DNA of 62,965 nucleotides, counting the filler, from Reticulomyxa filosa (lineage: Eukaryota; Protista; Foraminifera): the NCBI GenBank assembly GCA_000512085.1. It is 24 parts of 24 records of this genome, joined end to end, with 100 filler letters (N's around TTAATTAATTAA, not from the genome) between each part and the next. Parts side by side here need not be neighbours in the genome. Positions count along the whole stretch, not along the records: positions 47,119 to 51,462 come from ASPP01027602.1; 23 more parts are not named here. One strand, written 5' to 3'. A program made the position numbers and the translations under genes. Each line of letters opens with the position of its first letter. The first letter of the stretch is position 1. The notes beneath the pieces are model-generated. The model saw nothing but the letters and a program-made list of their open reading frames with translations. It was not told where the DNA came from and made no database searches. Of the stretch, positions 5,392-61,965 are shown piece after piece.

Positions 5392-6064
5392 TCATTCCCA
5401 AATTCGAATTGTACAATCTGCAGAACCTGATGCAATTGTATTTCCATTTTGAGATAAATCAATACATCTCACAGCTTGAGCATGTCCTTTCAACACATGT
5501 ATTTCCTTTCCTGATTTTACCTTCCATATTCGAATTGTATTATCACTTGAACATGATATAATCGATTTACATTGGGAAAATATTTTACATCATTCACATT
5601 GTTTGAATGCCCTTTCAATGTTTTCCATAGTTTTCCTGTTTCAATATTCCATATTTGAATTGTATTATCTGATGAACAAGAAACAATAAAATTATTATCT
5701 GGAGAAAATTTTGCACGTATTACACAATCAAAATGTCCTTCGAATTTTTTCAATCTTTTGCCACATTCTGTATTCCACAGATTGATTGTTTTATCATTTG
5801 ATGATGATAAAATCATTTTACCATCTGATGAGAATTGTGTACTAAATACAGCCTTTGAATGTCCTAATAATTGTTTTATCTCTATTCCAGGATGTACATC
5901 CCATAATCGTATTGTATTATCTTGCAAACATGATACAATATATTTTCCATCTGGAGAAAAGTTAACATCACATATTCTATTGGAATTACGTTTAAATTTA
6001 TTTACTTCTCTTCCTGTATTAATGTCCCATAATCGAATTGTTCCATCACCTGAACATGAAACAA
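5392..6064 (-). CDS. WD40-repeat protein C-terminus with a 1-nt frameshift near 5570
   Basis: Repeats of GH..V....FSPD...IVSCSSDNTIRLWD. After FPN the repeat resumes in another frame (KSIISCSSDNTIRIWKVKSGKEIHVLKGH...TIRIWE*). Confidence 0.9.
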
Positions 6065-6953
6065 NNNNNNNNNNNNNNNNNNNNNNNNNNNNNNNNNNNN
6101 NNNNNNNNTTAATTAATTAANNNNNNNNNNNNNNNNNNNNNNNNNNNNNNNNNNNNNNNNNNNNGAAAAACATTTGTGTTTACCCAAAAGTTTCTTACTC
6201 TTTTGACGACTCATGGTGTAAACTGCTGTCGAACAAAAACAAAGCAGCGACAAAGGAACTATACGTTTTTTTGCTATTGTCAAAATCACAAGCAGAGGTA
6301 GCTCGGTCCAACAAGAAGTCTTGCAAAAAGCTATTACTGCTCCTGATATTTCCAATGAGAAGAGAGAACAAGTTTGATTTTTTTCATTTTGTCTTGTTTA
6401 TTATACAAAAATATTAATAAAAAAAACTTGGATTGTTCTTGCTGTAGTAGTTTCACTTTGTTATACAGCGAACTAGTTTGAAATTAAAAATATTGAAATT
6501 TTTTTTTCCAAACAACTAATGTAAACACACCAATTCGATATTATTGGCTTTTTTTTTATTTAAAATGTTATCTCTGACTGGTTACCCAAAGTAATTCCAG
6601 ATTTTTTTTAGTGACAGCTTTTTCAAAAAAATGTTTCTATTTTTAAATTAATAAAAACAGAAAAATTTCATTTTTAAAAAATTTTTTACTAAATTCAACT
6701 TTCGTAAATCTCATTACTTTTTATTTCTATCTTTGTGTTTGGATGTAAAGTGTGCACTTGATGCAAGATAAAACGAATGACACGGCTAATTTTTTTCATC
6801 AAATAATTGTGTGCAGCCATGACTATGTTATTGCCAATAAATGGCGTCTTTTTTGTTTTATAACTGTCTTCAGGAAAAATCCCAACGACGCCGGCGCGAC
6901 CATGGAGCAGTGTGGCACTTGAAGTGGTGTGCAAGCCAGAGTGACTGCACGAT

Positions 6954-21442: not shown

Positions 21443-21575
21443 AAGAAATTTGATTGAAACGGAAGAAAAAAAAAANNNNNNNNNNNNNNNNNNNNNNNNN
21501 NNNNNNNNNNNNNNNNNNNTTAATTAATTAANNNNNNNNNNNNNNNNNNNNNNNNNNNNNNNNNNNNNNNNNNNN

Positions 21576-22487
21576 ATATCCCATATTCGAATAGTAAAAT
21601 CATATGATCCAGAACAAATAGTATAACCATTACCACCAATTATACCAATATTATTCATTATATTATAATCATTGTTATTATTGCATTGTAATGGTGAAAT
21701 ATCCACACACCAAACACCATCTTCATGTCCATTGAAAACATGTAATGATTTTGATGTTTCAACATCCCATAAACGAATTGTTTTGTCATATGATCCAGAA
21801 CATAAATATCTACCACCATTAAATGATGAAAATTCAATACCATAAACACCATCTGTGTGTTGATTGAATATTTGTAATTGTTGATTATATTTGAAATCCC
21901 AAAAACGAATTGTTTTGTCAGTGGACGAAGAACAAATGACATTTTGGTGATGATTATAATAATGATATGGTGAAAATTTCACATAATGCACAGGATCTGA
22001 ATGTCCATTGAATGATCGAATTTGTTTGCTGCTATTAATATCCCATACACGAACTGTTTCATCATTTGATCCTGAGCAAATAAATTGATCATCATCAAAT
22101 GTTAAATAATCAATACTATTCACACAATATTTGTGTCCGGTGAATGTTTTAAGTAATTTGGATGACGAACGAAAAATATCAAATATAAAAAAATTAATGG
22201 CCTGTGTTAAATATTAATTATAGATAAATATTTTTTTGGGACTATTTGTTTTGATTTAAAAAAAAGAAAAAGAAAATCATAACATAATCAACAACAATTT
22301 TGTCAAAATTATTAATCCATCCTAATTTAATGTTTAATATTCGAGTCCAATGATGAATAATGATTTGGATTTCTTTTTCTTCTAACTGATTCAATTACAA
22401 ATTACATATAATTACAACCAAAAGACAAACAGAAATCTAAAAGATTAAAACGAAGCATACCAGTGGCATCTGTGTTTCAGTAGTCAT
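21576..22487 (-). CDS. WD40-repeat protein of the expanded family (3' partial)
   Basis: Short exons MTTETQMPL and EIQIIIHHWTRILNIKLGWINNFDKIVVDY, followed by WD repeats (CSGSNDETVRVWD, CSGSYDKTIRLWD). Confidence 0.93.
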
Positions 22488-23032: not shown

Positions 23033-24867
23033 TTACAAATTTTTCAATTTTGACATCACTACTTGTGTTTTTTGATTATTTTCACCAAATTTTCGAGTAT
23101 AAATCGACAATACATTTTCATAACACTTCTTTGCCTCCATTTTGTCACCTTTTTTACAATGGATATCTCCTAAAATATCATATGAATTACCAATGTCTGG
23201 ATGATTAAAATCAAATTTCATCAATCTCAATTTCAATGCTTTTTTTCCAAATTCCATCGCTTTGTCATATTCTTGCTTGTTATAATAAATACATGCCAAA
23301 TTGTTGTATGAAATGGCGATATCAATGTGATCATTTCTAAATTTATCCAATTTAATTTTTAATGATTTTTCATGATATCGAATTGCTTTGTTGTATTCTC
23401 CTTTATTTTCATAGACAATTCCTAAATTATTGTATGAAGTAGCAATACAAATGTGACCATGCCCCAATTTGTTCAAACTAATTTTCAATGATTTTTTATA
23501 ATATTCAATTGCTTTATTGTATTCCCCTTTATTTTGATAAACATTTCCCAAATTATTGTACAAAGTAGCAATATTAATGTGATCAGGTCCCAATTTATCC
23601 AATCTAATTTTCAGTGATTTTTCATAATATTCAATTGCTTTATTGTATTGTCCTTTACTTTTATAAACAATTCCTAAATTGTTGTATGAAGTAGCAACGC
23701 CAATGTGATCATGCCCCAATTTGTTCAAACTAATTTTCAAATCTTTTTCATAATATTCAATTGCCTTATCATATTCTTCTTTACAGAAATAAGCATTTCC
23801 CAAACTGTTGTATGAAGTAGCAATATTAATGTGATCAGATCCCAATTTATCCAAACTAATTTTCAAATCTTTTTCATAATATTTAATTGCTTTGTCATAT
23901 TCTCCTTTGTCTTTATATGCTCTGCCTAACCAATAACAAGACGTTGCAACATCAATATCAGAATCTTGTAATGTTTGCAATCTAAAGCAAAGTGCAAAAC
24001 GAAGTAACTGAATTGCCTCATTCAATTTTGATATTTCTAGTGCATTTTTTCCCAATTCCATTAAATTTTCTATATTTATAGGCCAGGGGCAAGTAAAAAC
24101 ATGAGAACGGAAGTGATAACGAATAACAGATTGATTAGTAGGAATAAGTTGCTGAGTAATATGGCAATTCCCAAATCCATCAATGACACAATCAACAGCA
24201 TAAACACATCCATCAATTATGATATTATCAAATGTAACACTTTTTGAATGGAATGAAGAAACAGAATATGATCCAAATATTAATTTCTTTTTCATATATT
24301 GACTTGAATTAATCATCATTGAGAAAGGGATATTTTCTTGAGATAATCGATTATTTGATTTTGCTAATTGATCAATATTTATTGCAACAACAACAATTCC
24401 TTGTTATTTATTATTAATCATTTCATTTACCATTTCATGTGCTTTTTTATTTGCTTTATTCCATGAAAAATCTTTATCAATTTCTGCACTTCTATGTGTC
24501 ACGACATTGTAGAATTCATCTTGTTTTTTTTCATTTTCTGGATATTTTTCGTCATCATTATCTATTTTATCAATCCATTATTGTTGTTAACAAATAAATT
24601 ACTTAATAAAAATAGAGACAAACTGTAAATAAAATGAATAAAAAAGAAAACAGGTTTCGTTTTGAATGTGATTCTTAATTCTCTGTTACTGGTAATATAC
24701 TGGCCATTGCTATCAACAATTTTAAAATGAGGTATAGAATATCTTGTTTTACTGTTAGTGGTATTAATAAGATCTATCACTTTTTCTTTCAATCTTTTTA
24801 ATCTCAGGGAAACAAGTGTCACTTCATGCATTTCTTTTTCAATAGAAACAAAAGCTTTGTAAGGCAT
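23033..24867 (-). CDS. PB1-like N-terminus, unknown middle domain and seven 42-aa TPR repeats (kinesin-light-chain type)
   Basis: Exon 1 (24867 to about 24624) splices to exon 2 (about 24561-23033). Repeat consensus IATSYNNLGxVYxxKGEYDKAIEYYEKSLKIxLxKLGxDH. Confidence 0.92.
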
Positions 24868-32940: not shown

Positions 32941-33604
32941 TATACACTTCAAAAATAATCAACCTTCAAAACAATGCAAATGGGACATCAATACTGAACT
33001 CCTCAAATTATTTTTTTAAAAATAAAAGGCAAAGTGGTCAGTGATGCAAATCCACAAAAAAATGCTCTGATGTTGGTGTGGACGAATGGATTGGAGCGAA
33101 AAATTTTTCAACAAAGATATGATGAATGCAAAAATGTGGACTCTCCTTGTCATAAACACTTCTTTCGGGTTTTTTGAAATTTAAAAGTTGTGTGACAATA
33201 ATTAAGGTTTTCATTAGTTTGGTTCAAAATTTTTTTTAAAATATAAGATAATCAAGTTATACTATACAATGATGATCCATTCCAAAAAACAATTATAATT
33301 TTTAATTATCTGTGGTTAAGTTGTTTTGAAATCACAATTGCACAAGCACAAATGAAATGTTTTTTAATTTTTATAAGTTGCACATTACGTCTTAATGAAG
33401 AGAAAAAGGGTTTTTCTTTTTTTTTTTCTTTGTCTATTCTTGTCCACTTCGCTAAATAAAAAAAAATGGTTTTTATCTTCGGATGCTGTGCATCCTTCAA
33501 CAAANNNNNNNNNNNNNNNNNNNNNNNNNNNNNNNNNNNNNNNNNNNNTTAATTAATTAANNNNNNNNNNNNNNNNNNNNNNNNNNNNNNNNNNNNNNNN
33601 NNNN

Positions 33605-34064
33605 TGATAATACCATTCGAATATGGGATATTGAAACAACAAAACAGTTCAATGTATTCAAAGGACATAAATCTTTTGTGAATAGTGTAAAATATGGATC
33701 AAATGAATTAATCAATACAATATTATCTGGATCAAGCGATAAAAGTGTTTGTTTGTGGGATATTCGGTCTGATCAACAAATTCAAGTATTCAATGGGCAT
33801 GAAAGTGTTGTATGGTGTGTTGAATATTCACCATTTGTAATAAAAAATGGTATTGGTAATTCAAATGTGATATGTTCTGGATCATATGATAATACAATTC
33901 GTTTTTGGGATATTCGATCAAATAAGAATCAATTGTATATGACCAAAGAAGATAATGGAATATATTGTCTCAAATTTATTTTATTGAAAAAGAAGGAGAA
34001 GACTAAATATGATTTGAATTTGTGTTATGGTTCAAGCAGAGGTCACGTTCGTATTTGGGGATAA
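33605..34064 (+). CDS. WD40-repeat protein C-terminus (expanded family)
   Basis: WD repeats ending DLNLCYGSSRGHVRIWG*. Confidence 0.92.
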
Positions 34065-47782: not shown

Positions 47783-50269
47783 ATGTCCGGAGATGATGGA
47801 GGCTTGCAGGGCTTGAAAGCCTTAACTGATTTACTAGAGAACCATTTGAAGAAAATGGTGGAGCAGGAATCCTTTGTTGAGTTTGCAATTGTAAATAGCG
47901 GAGAAAATGCTTCTTTATTGAGAGAGGCTAAAGACAAAGCTTTAAAAGATGAAAAAGACTTATTGAAGTCATTGCAAGTATTGGAATTGAGCGACTTTTT
48001 AAAAAATTGTAAGTATTGAAAAAAAAGAAATGATTTGTCTGTTTCTGTGGGGCGTGAAAGAAGGAACAAAAAAAAAAAAAAAATAATGTGATATATTTTT
48101 CCCCCTTTTTTTTATAGGTGTCTTGGTGGAAAGGATGTACGATGAATTGTATGCACCTTTAAGAACAGAACAAAAAGGAGCACGCGAAAAATATGCAAAA
48201 AGTTTGGCTGAATACGAAAAAACCTAAACCTAAAACAGAAGGAGGTTCTATAGTCAGTTTAATGTTTTCTGCTCAAGTTAAAAAATTGAACTATATGTCA
48301 TTACATGTGAAGAGATGATTCAGCGCACTGTTACAACAAAAAAAGGGAATATACACGTATACTTTTTAAAAAAAAATAGAACTTGTATAAATCTGCGTTT
48401 GAGGGCTTCATCAAAGAGGTCTCCGCAGCATTCAACAAAGAACATGTGAAATTAAAGAAAATGGCTCCTGTCATGTGCAAAAACATTGAACGAACTTTTT
48501 ACAAAGTTGTGTTGAAATTACACAATTTAATATTTGTACTAAGCTTTTTTTTGAAATGAGGCAGTGATAAAAAAAGGGGCTAATTTAAAATAAGATAAGT
48601 GAAATGGGCGTGTTTGTTGTTACAAAAAAGACTTATTACGTTTACAAAGGAGATCACACTCAATTGACGGATTTGTTGCGTTGCTCGTTTGTATTTGATT
48701 CATTTGTCGATTTGTATAAAGCATTTGGCGTGTTTGAGAATGTAGCAAACTCAAAATCAGACATGAAAGGTGGCGTGTTGCGTGCCAAGGACCGATTTGA
48801 TCCCGAAAAGATGCCTTTTGGCTACCGTGACTTACTTGTAAATGTGATGTGTCCAGGAACTTCGGTCGTTTGTGAGGTGCAGTTCCACCATAAGATCTTT
48901 TATGATTCCAAAAAAGACAGTCACTACGTATACAAAAGAGCACGTCTTTTTGACGTTGGCGAACGTAACTTGGCCTATGAATACGTTACTGATCACATCA
49001 AATCCAAAATTCCACCTGAGCAAAAATATGTAAGCTGTAAACTTTTTGTTTCTTTGTTTTAATGCAACATTTTTTTTTTCCCCTTTTGCAAAATCGAATC
49101 AAACAAACTTGTTAATTGATGTTTGCGATCAAACAAAAAAGATTTCGAGATTTAATAAGGATGATGATGACGACGATCATGGCAAAAAAGAAGTGACTGT
49201 GTCCAGTTTGCTCAAGGAATGGTTCCCTGATAAAAATAATGAAGATGGTGTTGCTGGCATCACAGAAGACGGTAAAACAGTCTCCTATCTTCAAATTTTA
49301 GTGGATCAAGGATACGACAAAGTTGAAGGCTTGAAAGACTTGACTGATGATGATTTGAAGGAAATGAAATTTAAGCCTGGTATGTCTCATTTTTGTCGGA
49401 TTGAGAGAAAAAATTGATAAACTACAAACACAAGTGGGAATTTTTAAAAAATAGGACATCGCAAACAGTTCATCAAAAACAGAGACAACTACTTCAAATC
49501 TTTGGAAGATAAAGAAAAACAAGAAAAAGAAGAAAAAGAGAAAGAAGAAAAAGAGAGGGAAGAAAAAGAGAAAGAGATTGTACAGACAAAAACCAGCGGA
49601 GGAAAAAAAGAAGAACAAATCGAAGAAGATAATTCTGGCTTGAGAGAAACAAAAAACTAGTTAATTTTTGTATACTTTGCTCCAGCTGCATAAGTTTAAA
49701 CAAGACACATGGATGTGATGTGGTGATTACTATGTCAGTAATAACTTTTTAGCAAAAGAGAAAATTTTCATCGTTTGTGGCGCATTAGGAGGAAGTAATG
49801 GAGGAGGTGGTGTATATCTCGTGGACACCGCATCGCCACACAAATACACGTGCATTCGCGAAGATGGATACGTAAACGGACAAGCCATGTGTCGCATTTC
49901 TAATGAAAAGTTGTATATTTGCGCTGGCACATCCTTTGGCGCAAAAGGAGGCGGTATGTATATTTTTTTACATTGTAGCAACAAAGAAGGAAAAATTGTA
50001 TACTTTTCCTCTATAAAAAAATCGAATAACTAAACAAACTAAAAGGTGGAATTTGGGAAGTTGATGTTGAGACTGGAAGAGAATCTGAAGTGTGCAAAGG
50101 ATATGCGAATTGTACTACCATGACCAATGCTGGAGATGTCATCTACGCTGTGTGCGGACGAGCAGGAGGTGGCACTGGAGGGGGAGGTTTGTATCGTGTT
50201 GACTCTCGCACTGGAAGATATGAAGAGGTTGGTTCTGATTGGCAAAATGTTACGTGTATGGCAAGTTAA
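47783..50269 (+). CDS. RelA/SpoT-like synthetase domain, SAM domain, acidic linker and beta-propeller repeats (8 exons)
   Basis: Exons 47783-48008, 48118-48276, 48380-48505, 48631-49029, 49142-49379, 49455 to about 49637, 49753-49953 and 50046-50269. Motifs KNIERTFYK, DLLRCS, KDRF, GYRDLLVNV, EVQFH, HYVYKRAR; SAM YLQILVDQGYDKVEGLKDLTDDDLKEMKFKPGHRKQF; three 46-49-aa Gly-rich repeats. One frameshift in the A6 run at 48217-48222. Confidence 0.75.
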
Positions 50270-50312
50270 GCAGCCACTTCCTTTTTTTTTTCAAAAATCA
50301 TGTGAAATATAG

Positions 50313-50807
50313 GAAGTGCGTATAAAGTATACATAGTATGAGGCAAGGCTTATGGATGCAAAGGCTGTGGGGATTGATCCAAGCAAACAAAAATTAAAAA
50401 TTAAAAAAAACAAAATGACAAACAATCTATTAAACTGGGAGGCCAAATACTATATAAAGATGTTTGACAATGTTTGTCATGTGAGTTGAATTTTCACATT
50501 CTTGATGTCCTATCAACGTTTAGCGACTTGGCATTTTTGGATCAACTATGTACATAGGCGGTGGTGGTATTTGGGAAGTAAATACGGTCACTGATTGAAA
50601 GCATGTGGATGGAAATACACATGGTGAATGGTGGGCTTGGAAGATAAAAAGAGAATTTATTTTTGCAATGGGGTGGCCAGGAATCAACAAAGAACAACAT
50701 CGACTCTGAATACTGCTGGCTTGTTCTCATTTGATACAACCAATCCAAGAGAGGGCTATCAAACATTGCAACAGAGTAGATGGATCAATGTCACTTTGAT
50801 GTCATAA
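50313..50807 (+). pseudogene. Decayed propeller blades 4-5 of the upstream gene
   Basis: KVYIV*GKAYGCKG / GGGIWEVNTVT..GWKYTW*MVGLEDKKRIYFCNG..AGLFSFDTTNPREGYQTLQQSRWINVTLMS*. Confidence 0.6.
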
Positions 50808-52718
50808 AAAAAATTTATGTTCAAAACAAAAAAAAGGATCAAACTAAAAACACATTTTCAATTATGATCGACAAACTATCATTTTCAAGCTGGATTGATT
50901 ATAAAAGAAAAAGCAACATTTCATACTAATGAATAAAAAAATTAAACGCTGATTTAAATCATGCACTACATGATAGAATTGAAAAAGTAGACACTTGCCA
51001 AACACAAACTTAAATTTATCTCCAAAAATGAAGTTGTCCTTTTTTTGCTGATAAACATATATTTTTATGAACTTAAAACTAAGAATTCAGTTATAATCTT
51101 TATCACTACTATTGACATATAATTCTTTGGAACATGACATTAAGTCCCAAAAACGTAATGTATTATCATGTGTGTTGAAAATTCTTTTCAAATAATTCTT
51201 CTAGTTGCCAAAATGAACTTTTAATTTCTTTAAAACTTTTCTAGTTTTATGTTCACATATATTGTCGCTAATAACGTCACGTAGATATATTTCAAAAAAA
51301 AAATTAGTCTTGTATCTTTCTTAGTTTTTGAGAAAAATTAAATTCTTTTATTGCAGTTTATTACAATTTATTGAATCGCTGCAGTAAATTGCATAGAAAA
51401 CTGAACGCATAAAATACTACCTTATGAAGATAATTGATTTTCTCCATGAAAAATAAATATTTNNNNNNNNNNNNNNNNNNNNNNNNNNNNNNNNNNNNNN
51501 NNNNNNTTAATTAATTAANNNNNNNNNNNNNNNNNNNNNNNNNNNNNNNNNNNNNNNNNNNNCTGTTCAATATTTGAGTTTTTTAATTATTTTTTTGAAA
51601 ATTACTAAATGATTGAAAATTTTAACAAAAGACTTGCTGTTGAGCTGTTGCGTCAGTGCTGGAGTTTGCGCAAAGTTGAAAAAACAATTTGTAATAAAAC
51701 ACTAAAATGATATTTAAAAAAAAAATTATGTATGAATGTTGTTTTTTCATTTAGAAAATCAATCATCTATATAAGGTGCCATTTTATGTGTCAACTTTAC
51801 TTTGCATTATACAATCTTTAAAAAAAGCAGGAAATATTGTACAATTGATCTTGTTACATTCATTGGCCAATTATACTTGAATAAATACAAACGAAAAAAT
51901 AGAATTTATAAAACTAACGATTACTTGTTTATCATTTGTATTCATGATCAATAACAAAGCACTTGATCCAATGCTTGTTTGCAATCACATTTAATTAATA
52001 TACTATTAATCAATCTTTAACCTACAATGTTCATATAATCTCAAAAGTGGTTTTTTGCTTTTTAAGAATGCAAGTACATAAACATTATTTAACACATCAG
52101 CATATAATTTTCAATGGTTTCACGAAGTGATCCAGATAACATTATACTTAATTTTATACTAATTGTTAAATGAAAATACAATATCACGTAATGATATAAA
52201 ATGTACTTTTTCCATTGGTTTTCTATTGTTTAGTTTTGATTAATCTATTTTTCGTACAATATCATGTATAAATTTTTTCAGTCAATCAGAAAAATCTTGA
52301 AGTATCCACCTGAATAGTTCAAACATAAAATTTCAAAATGAATTTCAAACATTGTTAGTGTAAAATAAGATTCTTGACTTTGCTTCGTTCTCTTTCAAAA
52401 CAACTTTTCAGTCAAGTTGTGAATGACGACTTTGTCTAATTTTTTTTTAGATCAAAATAAATAACTTACTTAAATTGAAAAAAGATGCTGCAAAAAAATT
52501 TCGAAAGATAAAAAAAATTAAAATAATATTTAAAAACTACACTACTTGTAATTTTTTCTTTAAATAAAAAAAATGTTGATAAAACGTTGTTTTTTCATGG
52601 GAAAATCAGTCATCTTCANNNNNNNNNNNNNNNNNNNNNNNNNNNNNNNNNNNNNNNNNNNNTTAATTAATTAANNNNNNNNNNNNNNNNNNNNNNNNNN
52701 NNNNNNNNNNNNNNNNNN

Positions 52719-52977
52719 TGTTGAATATTCACCATTTGTTATAAAGAATAGTATTGGTAATTTAAATGTGATATGTTCTGGGTCATCTGATAATACAATT
52801 CGATTTTGGGATGTTCGATCAAATAAGAATCAATTGTATATGATCAAAGGAGATGATGATGGAATAATTTGTCTTAAATTTATTTTATTGAAAAAGAAAG
52901 AGAAGACAAAGAATGTTAAATATGATTGGAATTTGTGTTATGGTTCAAAGAAAGGTCCCATTCGTATTTGGGGATAA
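52719..52977 (+). CDS. WD40-repeat protein C-terminus (expanded family)
   Basis: VEYSPFVIKN..CSGSSDNTIRFWD..NLCYGSKKGPIRIWG*; close paralog of 33605-34064. Confidence 0.92.
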
Positions 52978-54263: not shown

Positions 54264-54838
54264 NNNNNNNNNNNNNNNNNNNNNNNNNNNNNNNNNNNNN
54301 NNNNNNNTTAATTAATTAANNNNNNNNNNNNNNNNNNNNNNNNNNNNNNNNNNNNNNNNNNNNAAAAATTTTGATTAAATGTTGTTTTTTCATGGAGAAA
54401 CATAACATCTCTATAAGGTGGCATTTTAGGTTTCAACTTTCTTTTTTATCTTACTGTATTATGTTTGTAACATTTTTTTTAATCTTTAATATTACGAATA
54501 TAATTGATGTTGAAGTTTTTAACTTTATAATTATTGACGCATGTATAGAAGCTACTTCAGGAAATGTTTTTCATTGTATTAATTATTTGTATTTTTCACC
54601 TGAATGAAATATATTTGATTGACTACAACACTAGTTATTCTATTTTGAGTGCTATTGGTAATTGTTTCCGGTATTTTAATCTACAGTAAAATGTACAATA
54701 TTTTTTCTTATGAAAAACATAATTAAACACAATATTTAATTGAATAAAGTTATTGCAGAGATTAACAACGTTCTGAACAGTTGACCTGTTTCCAAAATTT
54801 GAACAAATTTTTCGTACAAGAAAAAATTATATGCAAAT

Positions 54839-55876
54839 ATGAGTACCGTAACATGGAGCTGTCCAAAATTGTTTAACTTGAAAGTAGCAGAACTTCGTCG
54901 TCACGGTTTCCAGGACGTTGAAGATTGGCTGTCACGTCCGGGACATTTGTATATCGGACGTAAGCAACGAGTGTTTATTTACACTAATATACGTTCAACG
55001 GAGTGTCCCGGTACCAGCGTGGTGGCAGATAAGCGAACTACGGCAGGCAAGACATTGCAGAGACCAGTGGATACAGAGCGATCAATGAAACAGGGCAACA
55101 AAATGTGTGAAAAGCTACTTTCTTGCCCGATCGGATCATACATAGACAAAAACCAGAAAATTGTGAAGTTACTAGTGATCCCCGAGTCGAAATGGCATAA
55201 CCCATTTCGAAGCAAAGAAATCGGTCTAGGCAATTCACTACAACAATTTGAAGATTATCTGAGCAAGAACAAAGAGTTACTGCATGGCTTGGATGAGCTC
55301 GATAACGTAGCTGCCATTGGCTGCTGGTGTGCACCTAATCCATGCCATGGAAACGTTATCTTGAATTGGCACAACAAATTCAAACAACTGAAAGCCACCA
55401 CCATTCAACAAAAGTCCACACCGTCTGCAAATGTCGCTCCCGATCAAAAGCCCACGGAGGTCGTAAGCCTCCTTCCACTGCCAGTGTCTGGGGAGGTTCC
55501 TTCGCCAAATTGGACAATTATAACTTACACCAACACAAAGATGAAGAGAATGAAGTTAAGGGATAAAAAAAAAATTCTGAAGAAAATTCTAAAAAAGTTT
55601 AATATATACATATATATATTTTTTTTTTTTTTTTAAGTATTCCCCTCCTTCCTTCCTTCCTTCTTTCCTCAAATAAACAAACAAAAAAATCAATACAAAA
55701 ACAAAATACAGAAAATTGACGAAACGAATGTCAGCAAAACATTGTCATGGATCCTGCGCCATGGCTGTGGCGAATTGGGAATTCCAATGGACGACGCGGG
55801 ATTTGTATCGGTTCAAAGGCTTTTGCAGGCAAAGCCTATGAGAGTACGTAATGTGACCCTTGCCAATCTCGAACAT
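54839..55876 (+). CDS. DUF4326 domain fused to Tpt1/KptA RNA 2'-phosphotransferase (3' partial)
   Basis: Exon 1 has YIGR, SKWHNPF and GCWCAPNPCHG. A phase-0 GTAAGC donor at 55463 and the CAG acceptor at 55711 join it to VSKTLSWILRHGCGELGIPMDDAGFVSVQRLL. Confidence 0.8.
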
Positions 55877-56449
55877 GTACGCTTGAGAGGGGGGGGGAGG
55901 GGAAAGAAAAAAAAAATTACAACTTTGTTATTTGGTTTTCTATTTTGTTANNNNNNNNNNNNNNNNNNNNNNNNNNNNNNNNNNNNNNNNNNNNTTAATT
56001 AATTAANNNNNNNNNNNNNNNNNNNNNNNNNNNNNNNNNNNNNNNNNNNNGACGACGAAAATCGTTGTTAATAATCGAAGATTAACTTCGAACTTCTTTC
56101 AGATACTGCTAGATGTTGCAGTAAATAGTTGTTCTGTGCTTGTCTTCCTTCAAAATACAACTTTTTTTCAAGTTTATCTCGATGATGAAGGACGTTTAAA
56201 TTATTTTTTTTTTTTTTTGTGGAAGATTGATTATCCCTTAACTCGCACTGCTTTTTGCCCTTCTACTTGCATAAACTCAGGTCTTTTTAGTTAAAAGAGC
56301 ACCCTCGTTCTAAGAAATAGAACACAGTACTCAAAAAAAAGAAGCAAAAACAAAAGACACACAAAAATCTTACACCAACCAAAGCTCAATTCAAAAAATA
56401 ATCAAAAGAAAAACAATAAAGTTATTTCAATTTAAATTGAGATTTACTT

Positions 56450-60899: not shown

Positions 60900-61865
60900 T
60901 TATTTAAACAAACTACTTAATTTCAGCATTACTTCTTGTGTCTTTTGATGATTTTCACCAAATTTTTGAGTATAAATCGACAATGCAGTTTCATAACACT
61001 TCTTTGCGTCTATTTTGCCACCATTTTTACAATTGATATCTCCTAAAATATTATATGAGTTACCAACATCTGGATGATTATAATCCAATTTCTTCAATAT
61101 CAAATTTAATTCTTTCTTTCCAAATTCAATTGCCTTGTCATATTCTTGTTTATAATAATAAATTAATGCCAAATTTTTGTATGAAGCAGCAACACAAATG
61201 TGATCAGATCCCAATTTATCCAATCTAATTTTTAATGATTTATTACAGTATTCAATTGCATTGTCGAATTTTCCTTTCTTTCCATAAACACTTCCCAAAT
61301 TGTTGTATGAAATAGCAATATCAGGATGATCACATCCAAATTTACTCAATTTGATTTTCAATGATTTTTTATGATATTCAATTGCTCTATCATATTCCCC
61401 TTTATTTTCATAAACAAGTCCCAAATTGTTGTATGGAATAGCAACACTAATGTGATCATGCCCCAATTTATCTAATTTGATTTTTAATGATTTTTCATGA
61501 TATTCAATTGCTCTATCATATTCCCCTTTATTTTCATAAGCATTTCCTAAACTGTTGTATGAAGCAGAAATATCAATATGATAATATCCCAATTTATGCA
61601 AACTAATTTTCAAATCTTTTTCATAATATTCAATTGCTTTGTCATATTCTCCTTTATCTTTATATGCTCTGCCTAACCAAAAATAAGATACTGCAACAAC
61701 ATTATGATAATCATATAATGTTTGTAAGTTAAAGCAAAGTGCAAAACGAAATAATTGAATTGCCTCATTCACTTTTGAGATATCTAATGAATTTTTTCCC
61801 AATTCCATTAAATTTTCTATGTCAATAGGCCAAGGACAAGTAAAAACATGAGAACGGAAGTGACA
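60900..61865 (-). CDS. TPR protein with six 42-aa repeats, paralog of 23033-24867 (5' partial)
   Basis: Same HFRSHVFTCPWPI leader, same first and last cap repeats and same 3' flank as the 23033 gene. Confidence 0.93.
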   Translation of the reverse strand, partial: CHFRSHVFTCPWPIDIENLMELGKNSLDISKVNEAIQLFRFALCFNLQTLYDYHNVVAVSYFWLGRAYKDKGEYDKAIEYYEKDLKISLHKLGYYHIDISASYNSLGNAYENKGEYDRAIEYHEKSLKIKLDKLGHDHISVAIPYNNLGLVYENKGEYDRAIEYHKKSLKIKLSKFGCDHPDIAISYNNLGSVYGKKGKFDNAIEYCNKSLKIRLDKLGSDHICVAASYKNLALIYYYKQEYDKAIEFGKKELNLILKKLDYNHPDVGNSYNILGDINCKNGGKIDAKKCYETALSIYTQKFGENHQKTQEVMLKLSSLFK

Positions 61866-61965
61866 NNNNNNNNNNNNNNNNNNNNNNNNNNNNNNNNNNN
61901 NNNNNNNNNTTAATTAATTAANNNNNNNNNNNNNNNNNNNNNNNNNNNNNNNNNNNNNNNNNNNN

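Follow-up and report, generated by a model that had tools for sequence, protein, structure and literature searches.

The stretch of DNA analysed here (the window; 62,965 nucleotides from the foraminiferan Reticulomyxa filosa, assembly GCA_000512085.1) consists of 24 short contigs joined by N linkers, and a single locus fills one 4344-bp contig at 47119-51462 (ASPP01027602.1). [quoted passage not shown] The gene is real. Used as a query, its fourth exon matched 12 of 113 candidate proteins at E<=0.001; the best of these, the ortholog P0001 (634 aa, JGI), is 90% identical in this exon and has the complete architecture in a single frame. Protein-guided mapping, with P0001 and the paralog P0003 as guides, gave the following features, numbered along the window.

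47783..48008 (+): exon 1, opening part of the helical N-module (~110 aa) found ahead of the synthetase across the family; 100% identical to the public model RFI_31401 (P0016) and 91% to the open reading frame (ORF) P0017; GT donor at 48009
48118..48276 (+): exon 2, covering the last part of the N-module and the first part of the synthetase; holds the frame break, the frame changing at the A-run; GT donor at 48277
48217..48222 (+): A6 run with a +1 frame shift; the upstream frame stops at TAA 48225-48227; inferred A9 in the ortholog, same phase
48380..48505 (+): exon 3, synthetase motif KxxxRxxxK; 34/42 residues identical to P0001
48631..49029 (+): exon 4, catalytic core with DLLR, KDRF, GYRD..N, EVQxH and HxxY; 120/133 residues identical to P0001, motifs conserved, RSH fold in an intact paralog
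49142..49379 (+): exon 5, an acidic linker followed by the larger part of the SAM domain; on its own E 0.029 with Pfam SAM_2, P0001 above cut-off
49455..49659 (+): exon 6, end of the SAM domain and E/K-rich helical linker (a long helix in the ortholog model); ends at a canonical donor, TA|GT
49739..49953 (+): exon 7, blade 1 and start of blade 2; 46/71 residues identical to P0001
50046..50264 (+): exon 8, which completes blade 2 and adds blade 3; 53/72 residues identical to P0001; followed by a GT-AG intron (50265-50312), into which readthrough stops at 50267-50269
50313..50373 (+): exon 9 remnant, start of blade 4; in-frame TGA at 50339-50341
50374..50545 (-): inverted segment carrying the remainder of exon 9 (blades 4-5, interrupted by one in-frame stop) together with the greater part of an intron; minus-strand match E 3e-12; perfect 9-nt inverted repeats at 50374-50382 and 50537-50545
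50558..50807 (+): last-exon remnant, blades 5-6; frameshift and in-frame stops

The initial annotation, made from the sequence without database searches, had proposed eight exons encoding an RSH-synthetase-like domain, a SAM domain, an E/K linker and repeats of about 46-49 aa, and all of these are confirmed. The exons run from the ATG at 47783, their introns are all GT-AG (48-125 nt, 23-35% GC), and the joined frame from the A-run onward is identical to P0001 at 385 of 502 aligned residues (77%), with every junction in register. A phase-1 intron divides the SAM domain between PG and HRK, as had been predicted. The joining of exons 6 and 7 also holds, although by a different route from those envisaged, namely a GC donor near 49638 or a 1-nt correction near 49655; neither is needed, because the apparent TAG at 49658-49660 is divided by a canonical GT donor (intron 49660-49738) and the match to the ortholog stays in register. 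The end of the gene had been placed at 50269, and this placement is abandoned, since the match to the ortholog continues across a 48-nt intron into remnants of blades 4-6 that extend to 50807.

Fold and active site of the synthetase domain

For structural comparison we modelled the N-module and synthetase of an intact paralog (L001:552-1430) from a 71-sequence alignment, with a predicted local distance difference test (pLDDT) score of 96.5. Among the Foldseek matches listed all 25 rows are RSH synthetases (E 3.5e-5 to RelQ), and in VIA ranks 1-27 are likewise all RSH (Z 8.8-12.2), the best with Z 12.2 and a root-mean-square deviation (rmsd) of 2.6 over 133 residues and the first non-RSH row at Z 8.2. 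The proposed RSH/nucleotidyltransferase fold is thus borne out on the model of this paralog, and the 71-sequence profile also matches Bacillus subtilis RelP (E 0.007). With RelQ, RelP, Rel, SaEAS, CapRel and Tas1 all lying within ~2 Z units of one another, the fold does not reveal the product.

The motifs KxxxRxxxK, DLLR, KDRF, GYRD, EVQ and HxxYK recognised at the outset are present and near-invariant across the family. Counted per column over the covering rows among 101 rows of at least 120 bits, the catalytic positions are kept as D in 74/74, R in 72/74, K in 78/80, the G-loop Y in 79/80, E in 76/77 and Q in 75/75. The D-x-x-R spacing, K, E and Q match residues given for SaEAS and Apk1 (SaEAS D121/R124) in PMC12691689, and the G-loop Tyr is described in PMC7229694 as a requirement of toxic small alarmone synthetases (toxSAS). 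The variants in these motifs that the initial annotation had remarked upon are fixed family-wide and also occur in distant rows. Around the Syn3 position discussed below there is an Asp two residues before and an Asn two residues after, the Asn in 76/78 rows. An HD hydrolase domain and a TGS/ACT tail, the marks of long RSH proteins (Rel/RelA/SpoT, plant RSH), gave no Pfam match in P0001 or the scanned relatives, which bears out the suggestion that no hydrolase domain is present.

The domain is best compared with RelQ/RelP, SaEAS (8VX3, exported), Tas1/Apk1 (6OX6) and CapRel (7ZTB), with which it shares the synthetase fold (Z 9.5-11.7), the lack of a hydrolase domain, the catalytic D, E-x-Q, G-loop Y and K and, with SaEAS, the D-x-x-R spacing. 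It differs from these small alarmone synthetases in its low identity (13-20%), its spliced, multidomain setting, the absence of a signal peptide by inspection and the lack of a resolvable subtype, and has KxxxRxxxK and GYRD-L-L-x-N where they have RxKxxxSxxxK and GYRS-L-H. The sequence matches do not clearly set the domain nearer the RelV/Tas1/SaEAS branch than other RSHs. SaEAS is the sole match of exon 4 to PDB sequences and is weak (E 0.74); matches to XopAD are weak as well (E 0.02-0.03), RelP scoring better with the deep profile in a comparison that held no RelV sequence. PADLOC and NCBIfam named no family above cut-off, and in an Atlas search with exon 4 the matches were unnamed clusters scoring 0.94-0.95, of which one includes a record from a foraminiferan, plus a RelA_SpoT cluster scoring 0.89.

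The SAM domain of P0001 scores 22.2 bits against Pfam SAM_2 (cut-off 20.5), and those of P0008 and L001 are likewise above the cut-off, while exon 5 alone falls below it. SARM1 also places SAM beside a nucleotide-consuming enzyme and a repeat sensor; the likeness is one of analogy only, as the foraminiferan family has a single SAM domain and RSH rather than TIR chemistry, and the SARM1 SAM region matches the profile at E 1.1.

A foraminiferan family with exchangeable partner domains

A profile of the module retrieves 78 clusters at E<=1e-30; the number rises to 224 when the threshold is 1e-10 and to 1884 when it is 1e-3. In a taxon look-up of 20 proteins, 11 had a name or a named cluster-mate (6/10 in the first batch and 5/10 in the second), all from Reticulomyxa, Nonionella, Bolivina, Elphidium or Ammonia; the remaining nine carry no taxon. 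P0001 groups with P0057 (99) and with P0002/P0003 (94) in a quick, unfinished tree of 146 columns, used for this grouping only. Among bacterial and archaeal genomes, 26 pattern matches included no relative, a weak negative given the narrowness of the patterns. A scan of JGI metagenomes did not retrieve the contig of the ortholog and gave three other loci from 113 pattern matches. Viral contigs yielded one distant small synthetase among 56 matches; this is a stand-alone protein of 184 aa (L004 2839-3393) that shares the GYRD motif and is encoded downstream of a reading frame which by eye resembles nucleoside-diphosphate kinase.

Domain composition was scanned in 54 of 150 proteins listed, the longer ones being chosen, together with 12 earlier matches and four ORFs from three loci. 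Partners of the module lie on either side of it and include galectin, C-type lectin/Xlink, AbfB, weak ricin-B/fascin, ubiquitin, ubiquitin with Hint, WW, UBA, C1/ZZ, TLDc, Kelch, kinesin with EF-hand, choline-transporter-like, 14-3-3, MATH and SPRY domains; 23 of the 54 relatives have no Pfam match at E<=1e-4. At the same threshold no NACHT or NB-ARC ATPase was found in P0001 or the 54 relatives. A receptor-like design, as first proposed for this gene, is supported by the many exchangeable partners, several of lectin type, that the synthetase(-SAM) module bears. Unusual fusions (P0042, P0038, P0067 and P0055-P0063) join it to ubiquitin and an intein-like Hint domain, to a kinesin motor with EF-hands or to a choline-transporter-like membrane protein. 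Intact members include L001 (477-3110), with three repeats that by eye resemble carbohydrate-binding modules and have no Pfam match, and L002 (19-2421), with two MATH domains.

The closest parallel is found in fungi, where RelA_SpoT is described as an N-terminal effector domain on NACHT-WD40 NLRs (PMC4986451). As outlined in that source, these proteins likewise combine a eukaryotic, non-plastid RSH domain with an oligomerising domain and a repeat sensor, swap domains combinatorially and have a function that is itself putative. Fungal NLRs show the same pattern, in which the effector module stays constant and its partners are reshuffled. In contrast to what is outlined there, the present family is foraminiferan, has SAM in place of the NACHT ATPase, possesses an extra ~110-aa helical N-module and bears partners on both sides. 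A second precedent is divRel, the synthetase-only form reported in Dictyostelium, ascomycetes and diatoms as sporadic and probably derived by bacterial gene transfer (PMC3153485). Both are synthetase RSH proteins of eukaryotes outside the main plant RSH groups, but the foraminiferan genes have expanded widely within their lineage and carry SAM and numerous partners, in contrast to a sporadic synthetase-only gene. Our literature search, conducted at the level of listings and the openings of abstracts, found no paper on a foraminiferan RSH family; the family is thus without a description found in print, whereas the concept of a non-plastid eukaryotic RSH fused to a sensor has precedent.

The propeller and the decay of its 3' half

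The repeat domain of P0001 comprises six repeats and is modelled as a six-bladed propeller, so that the propeller predicted for this gene is upheld in the ortholog. The suggestion that it might be a lectin gains no clear support: among fold matches the leading ones, with scores that are tied, are propellers of the YWTD, Kelch, TolB and NHL types (YWTD, Kelch and NHL at Z 20-24), and the Ralstonia lectin appears at rank 24 (Z 20.1). The repeat itself belongs to an unnamed metagenome family (P0166-P0176; 11 matches among 1405 candidates of up to 347 aa), in which P0166 is a six-repeat relative with 59% identity.

The R. filosa copy encodes at most three of the six blades. Downstream of exon 8 a segment of 172 bp is inverted, and flipping 50374-50545 restores colinearity with the ortholog (E 9e-36). 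Further stops occur at ~50520 (minus strand), at 50625 and probably at 50596, along with frameshifts. Two of the stops, the TGA codons at 50339 and 50625, fall where the ortholog has Cys, probably by chance within a decaying stretch; recoding of TGA as Cys was rejected, as other stops and frameshifts nearby point to decay.

Because exons 1-8 contain no nonsense codon in 595, against three or four in the last ~148 (p 0.0016 with four and ~0.008 with three, the latter calculated by hand), we infer that the 3' half of the propeller died while the remainder was still maintained. Blades 4-6 would then have been lost first, with exons 1-8 under selection in the meantime. It is possible, though we think it the lesser probability, that the R. 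filosa copy is instead a plain pseudogene, which arose by recent duplication and is decaying along its whole length, its parent being intact elsewhere or extinct. The accumulation of a frame break, an inversion, stops and frameshifts at one locus is what such a duplicate would present, and a second R. filosa copy (P0005, ETO07747; 93% identity) has substitutions at motif residues and a broken model. Against this, the lesions are concentrated in the last ~148 codons, while exons 1-8 retain all splice sites and catalytic residues; moreover, this explanation bears on the R. filosa copy and not on the family.

Proposed function, the shared frame break and neighbouring sequences

We consider it fairly probable that the locus is a damaged Reticulomyxa copy of a foraminiferan family, built from the N-module, a RelA/SpoT-type synthetase, often a SAM domain and swappable partners, whose members are likely to be cytosolic, sensor-switched pyrophosphokinases with a predicted alarmone-type nucleotide as product. 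A cytosolic location would accord with the acidic N-terminus and the lack of a signal by inspection. The partner domain, here the six-bladed propeller, may bind a ligand, whereupon clustering through SAM or movement of the N-module would switch the enzyme on. The synthetase would then use ATP to pyrophosphorylate a purine nucleotide at its 3'-OH, giving (p)ppGpp or (p)ppApp, or, less likely, tRNA, and the output might be a role in stress or defence.

Several observations weigh against this interpretation. The RelA_SpoT hidden Markov model does not match the exons of the R. filosa copy, and close relatives score below its cut-off (E 6e-4 to 0.1); it was for this reason that the fold was assessed on the L001 paralog. 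The Syn3 position four residues after the G-loop Tyr, which is His in RelP and Asn in SaEAS (N169), is Leu in the family, and with this departure from the characterised enzymes the chemistry may differ. By a crude pattern, which probably undercounts, only 16 of the 36 rows that hold a whole module have a SAM signature after it. The kinesin, ubiquitin, transporter and 14-3-3 partners point to localisation or general signalling and not to the sensing of ligands. As assembled, the gene yields only a 111-aa peptide, and the public model RFI_31401 (111 aa) stops at the frame break. Finally, the only ortholog that covers this site is broken there in the same phase, which is not well explained by chance.

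An RSH-fold enzyme with another acceptor, acting by pyrophosphorylation of tRNA-CCA (as in CapRel and FaRel2) or of other RNA or protein, would make these proteins translation-blocking suicide effectors. FaRel2 pyrophosphorylates tRNA, whereas the activity of CapRel on tRNA is taken here from a PDB title. CapRel gives the longest alignment with the model (183 residues, Z 10.3, rmsd 4.4), and the family has fixed its variants of Syn1 and Syn3. However, the tie in Z-scores among the RSH subtypes means that no acceptor is favoured by structure, and we regard this alternative as unlikely.

The frame break requires separate consideration. The initial annotation had raised the possibility of a frameshift at 48220 in a gene lacking an intact paralog; the break is indeed present in the assembled sequence, where the frame shifts by +1 at the A6 run (48217-48222) and terminates after 111 codons, whereas intact paralogs such as L001 do exist. 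The ortholog appears to be split likewise: the ORF P0017 (124 aa; found on two contigs, of which the longest has 2440 nt) stops 12 residues beyond the site, where P0001 starts, and their overlap has the single solution G-A9-CC. That P0017 and P0001 lie on one contig was deduced from the length of both contigs (2440 nt) and the consistent overlap, the DNA not having been read. Over the 11 codons that follow the run and precede any Met, the two species differ at seven third positions and at no first or second position, and the downstream frame has therefore long been translated from upstream. Such conservation speaks against an old pseudogene. It also led us to reject re-initiation at the first Met downstream, since the codons ahead of that Met are under selection.

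From these observations it might be supposed that the +1 break is inherited and functional, with programmed ribosomal frameshifting or polymerase slippage allowing just part of the messages to yield the enzyme, thereby limiting a potentially toxic synthetase and freeing the N-module. The split of the ortholog at the same run and in the same phase, the occurrence of P0017 on two contigs and the codon pattern beyond it would all fit, as would the fact that the other five runs of at least six A in exons 1-8 are in frame. Nevertheless, the family spacing Y-E-x-K-P-K-P implies an in-frame A8, a hot-spot for both mutation and sequencing error, relative to which A6 (-2) and A9 (+1) may be two separate events, and ~70 other family members are intact across the site. 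Comparable lesions occur elsewhere in the family: an intron-less SPRY-RSH-SAM contig (L003 1406-1412) has an extra A in an A7 run that shifts the phase by +1 and splits the catalytic domain, and by eye the tails of P0065, P0083 and P0092 look shifted (3/22 truncated rows). The R. filosa assembly was presumably built from homopolymer-prone 454 reads. RNA folding of the 77 nt that span and follow the run is not stronger than that of shuffled sequences (z 0.49), and ribosome sliding was weak on A9-A10 in the E. coli cell-free system reported in PMC4363877. Two homopolymer errors or mutations of an in-frame A8 are likelier than recoding, which we judge distinctly improbable, and the break in the R. 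filosa copy would most likely be a homopolymer error or a recent mutation. The still broader proposal of a large foraminiferan system of cytosolic, sensor-gated alarmone synthetases in which conserved +1 recoding at the A-run throttles this ortholog group is likewise judged distinctly improbable.

The family bears on whether non-plant eukaryotes produce (p)ppGpp-type signals in the cytosol, and by which enzyme. Reports of (p)ppGpp in Dictyostelium are described as disputed in PMC3153485. Returning to the preferred reading of a sensor-switched synthetase family, the family offers dozens of intact candidates with conserved active sites joined to lectin, ubiquitin, MATH, SPRY, 14-3-3 and motor domains, and is directly testable. 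The R. filosa copy itself is a poor test subject, while the shared frame break provides a lead on possible recoding; were this true, Rhizaria would have an instance of slippage or programmed frameshifting, which would suggest that some Reticulomyxa "pseudogenes" are live genes.

Neighbouring sequences include an ORF on the minus strand of the same contig (47119-47527), head-to-head with the gene and ~250 bp from its ATG, that by eye resembles a RING/TRAF-type zinc finger, Pfam giving a weak BTB_SANBR match only. Elsewhere in the window two consecutive ORFs occupy 54803-56002 (+), of which by eye the first resembles a DUF4326-type domain and the second the beginning of a tRNA 2'-phosphotransferase. 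WD40- and TPR-repeat fragments of expanded families, mostly recognised by eye, lie at 5517-6116, 21524-22213, 33561-34064 and 52675-52977, and at 23033-24403 and 60900-61913.
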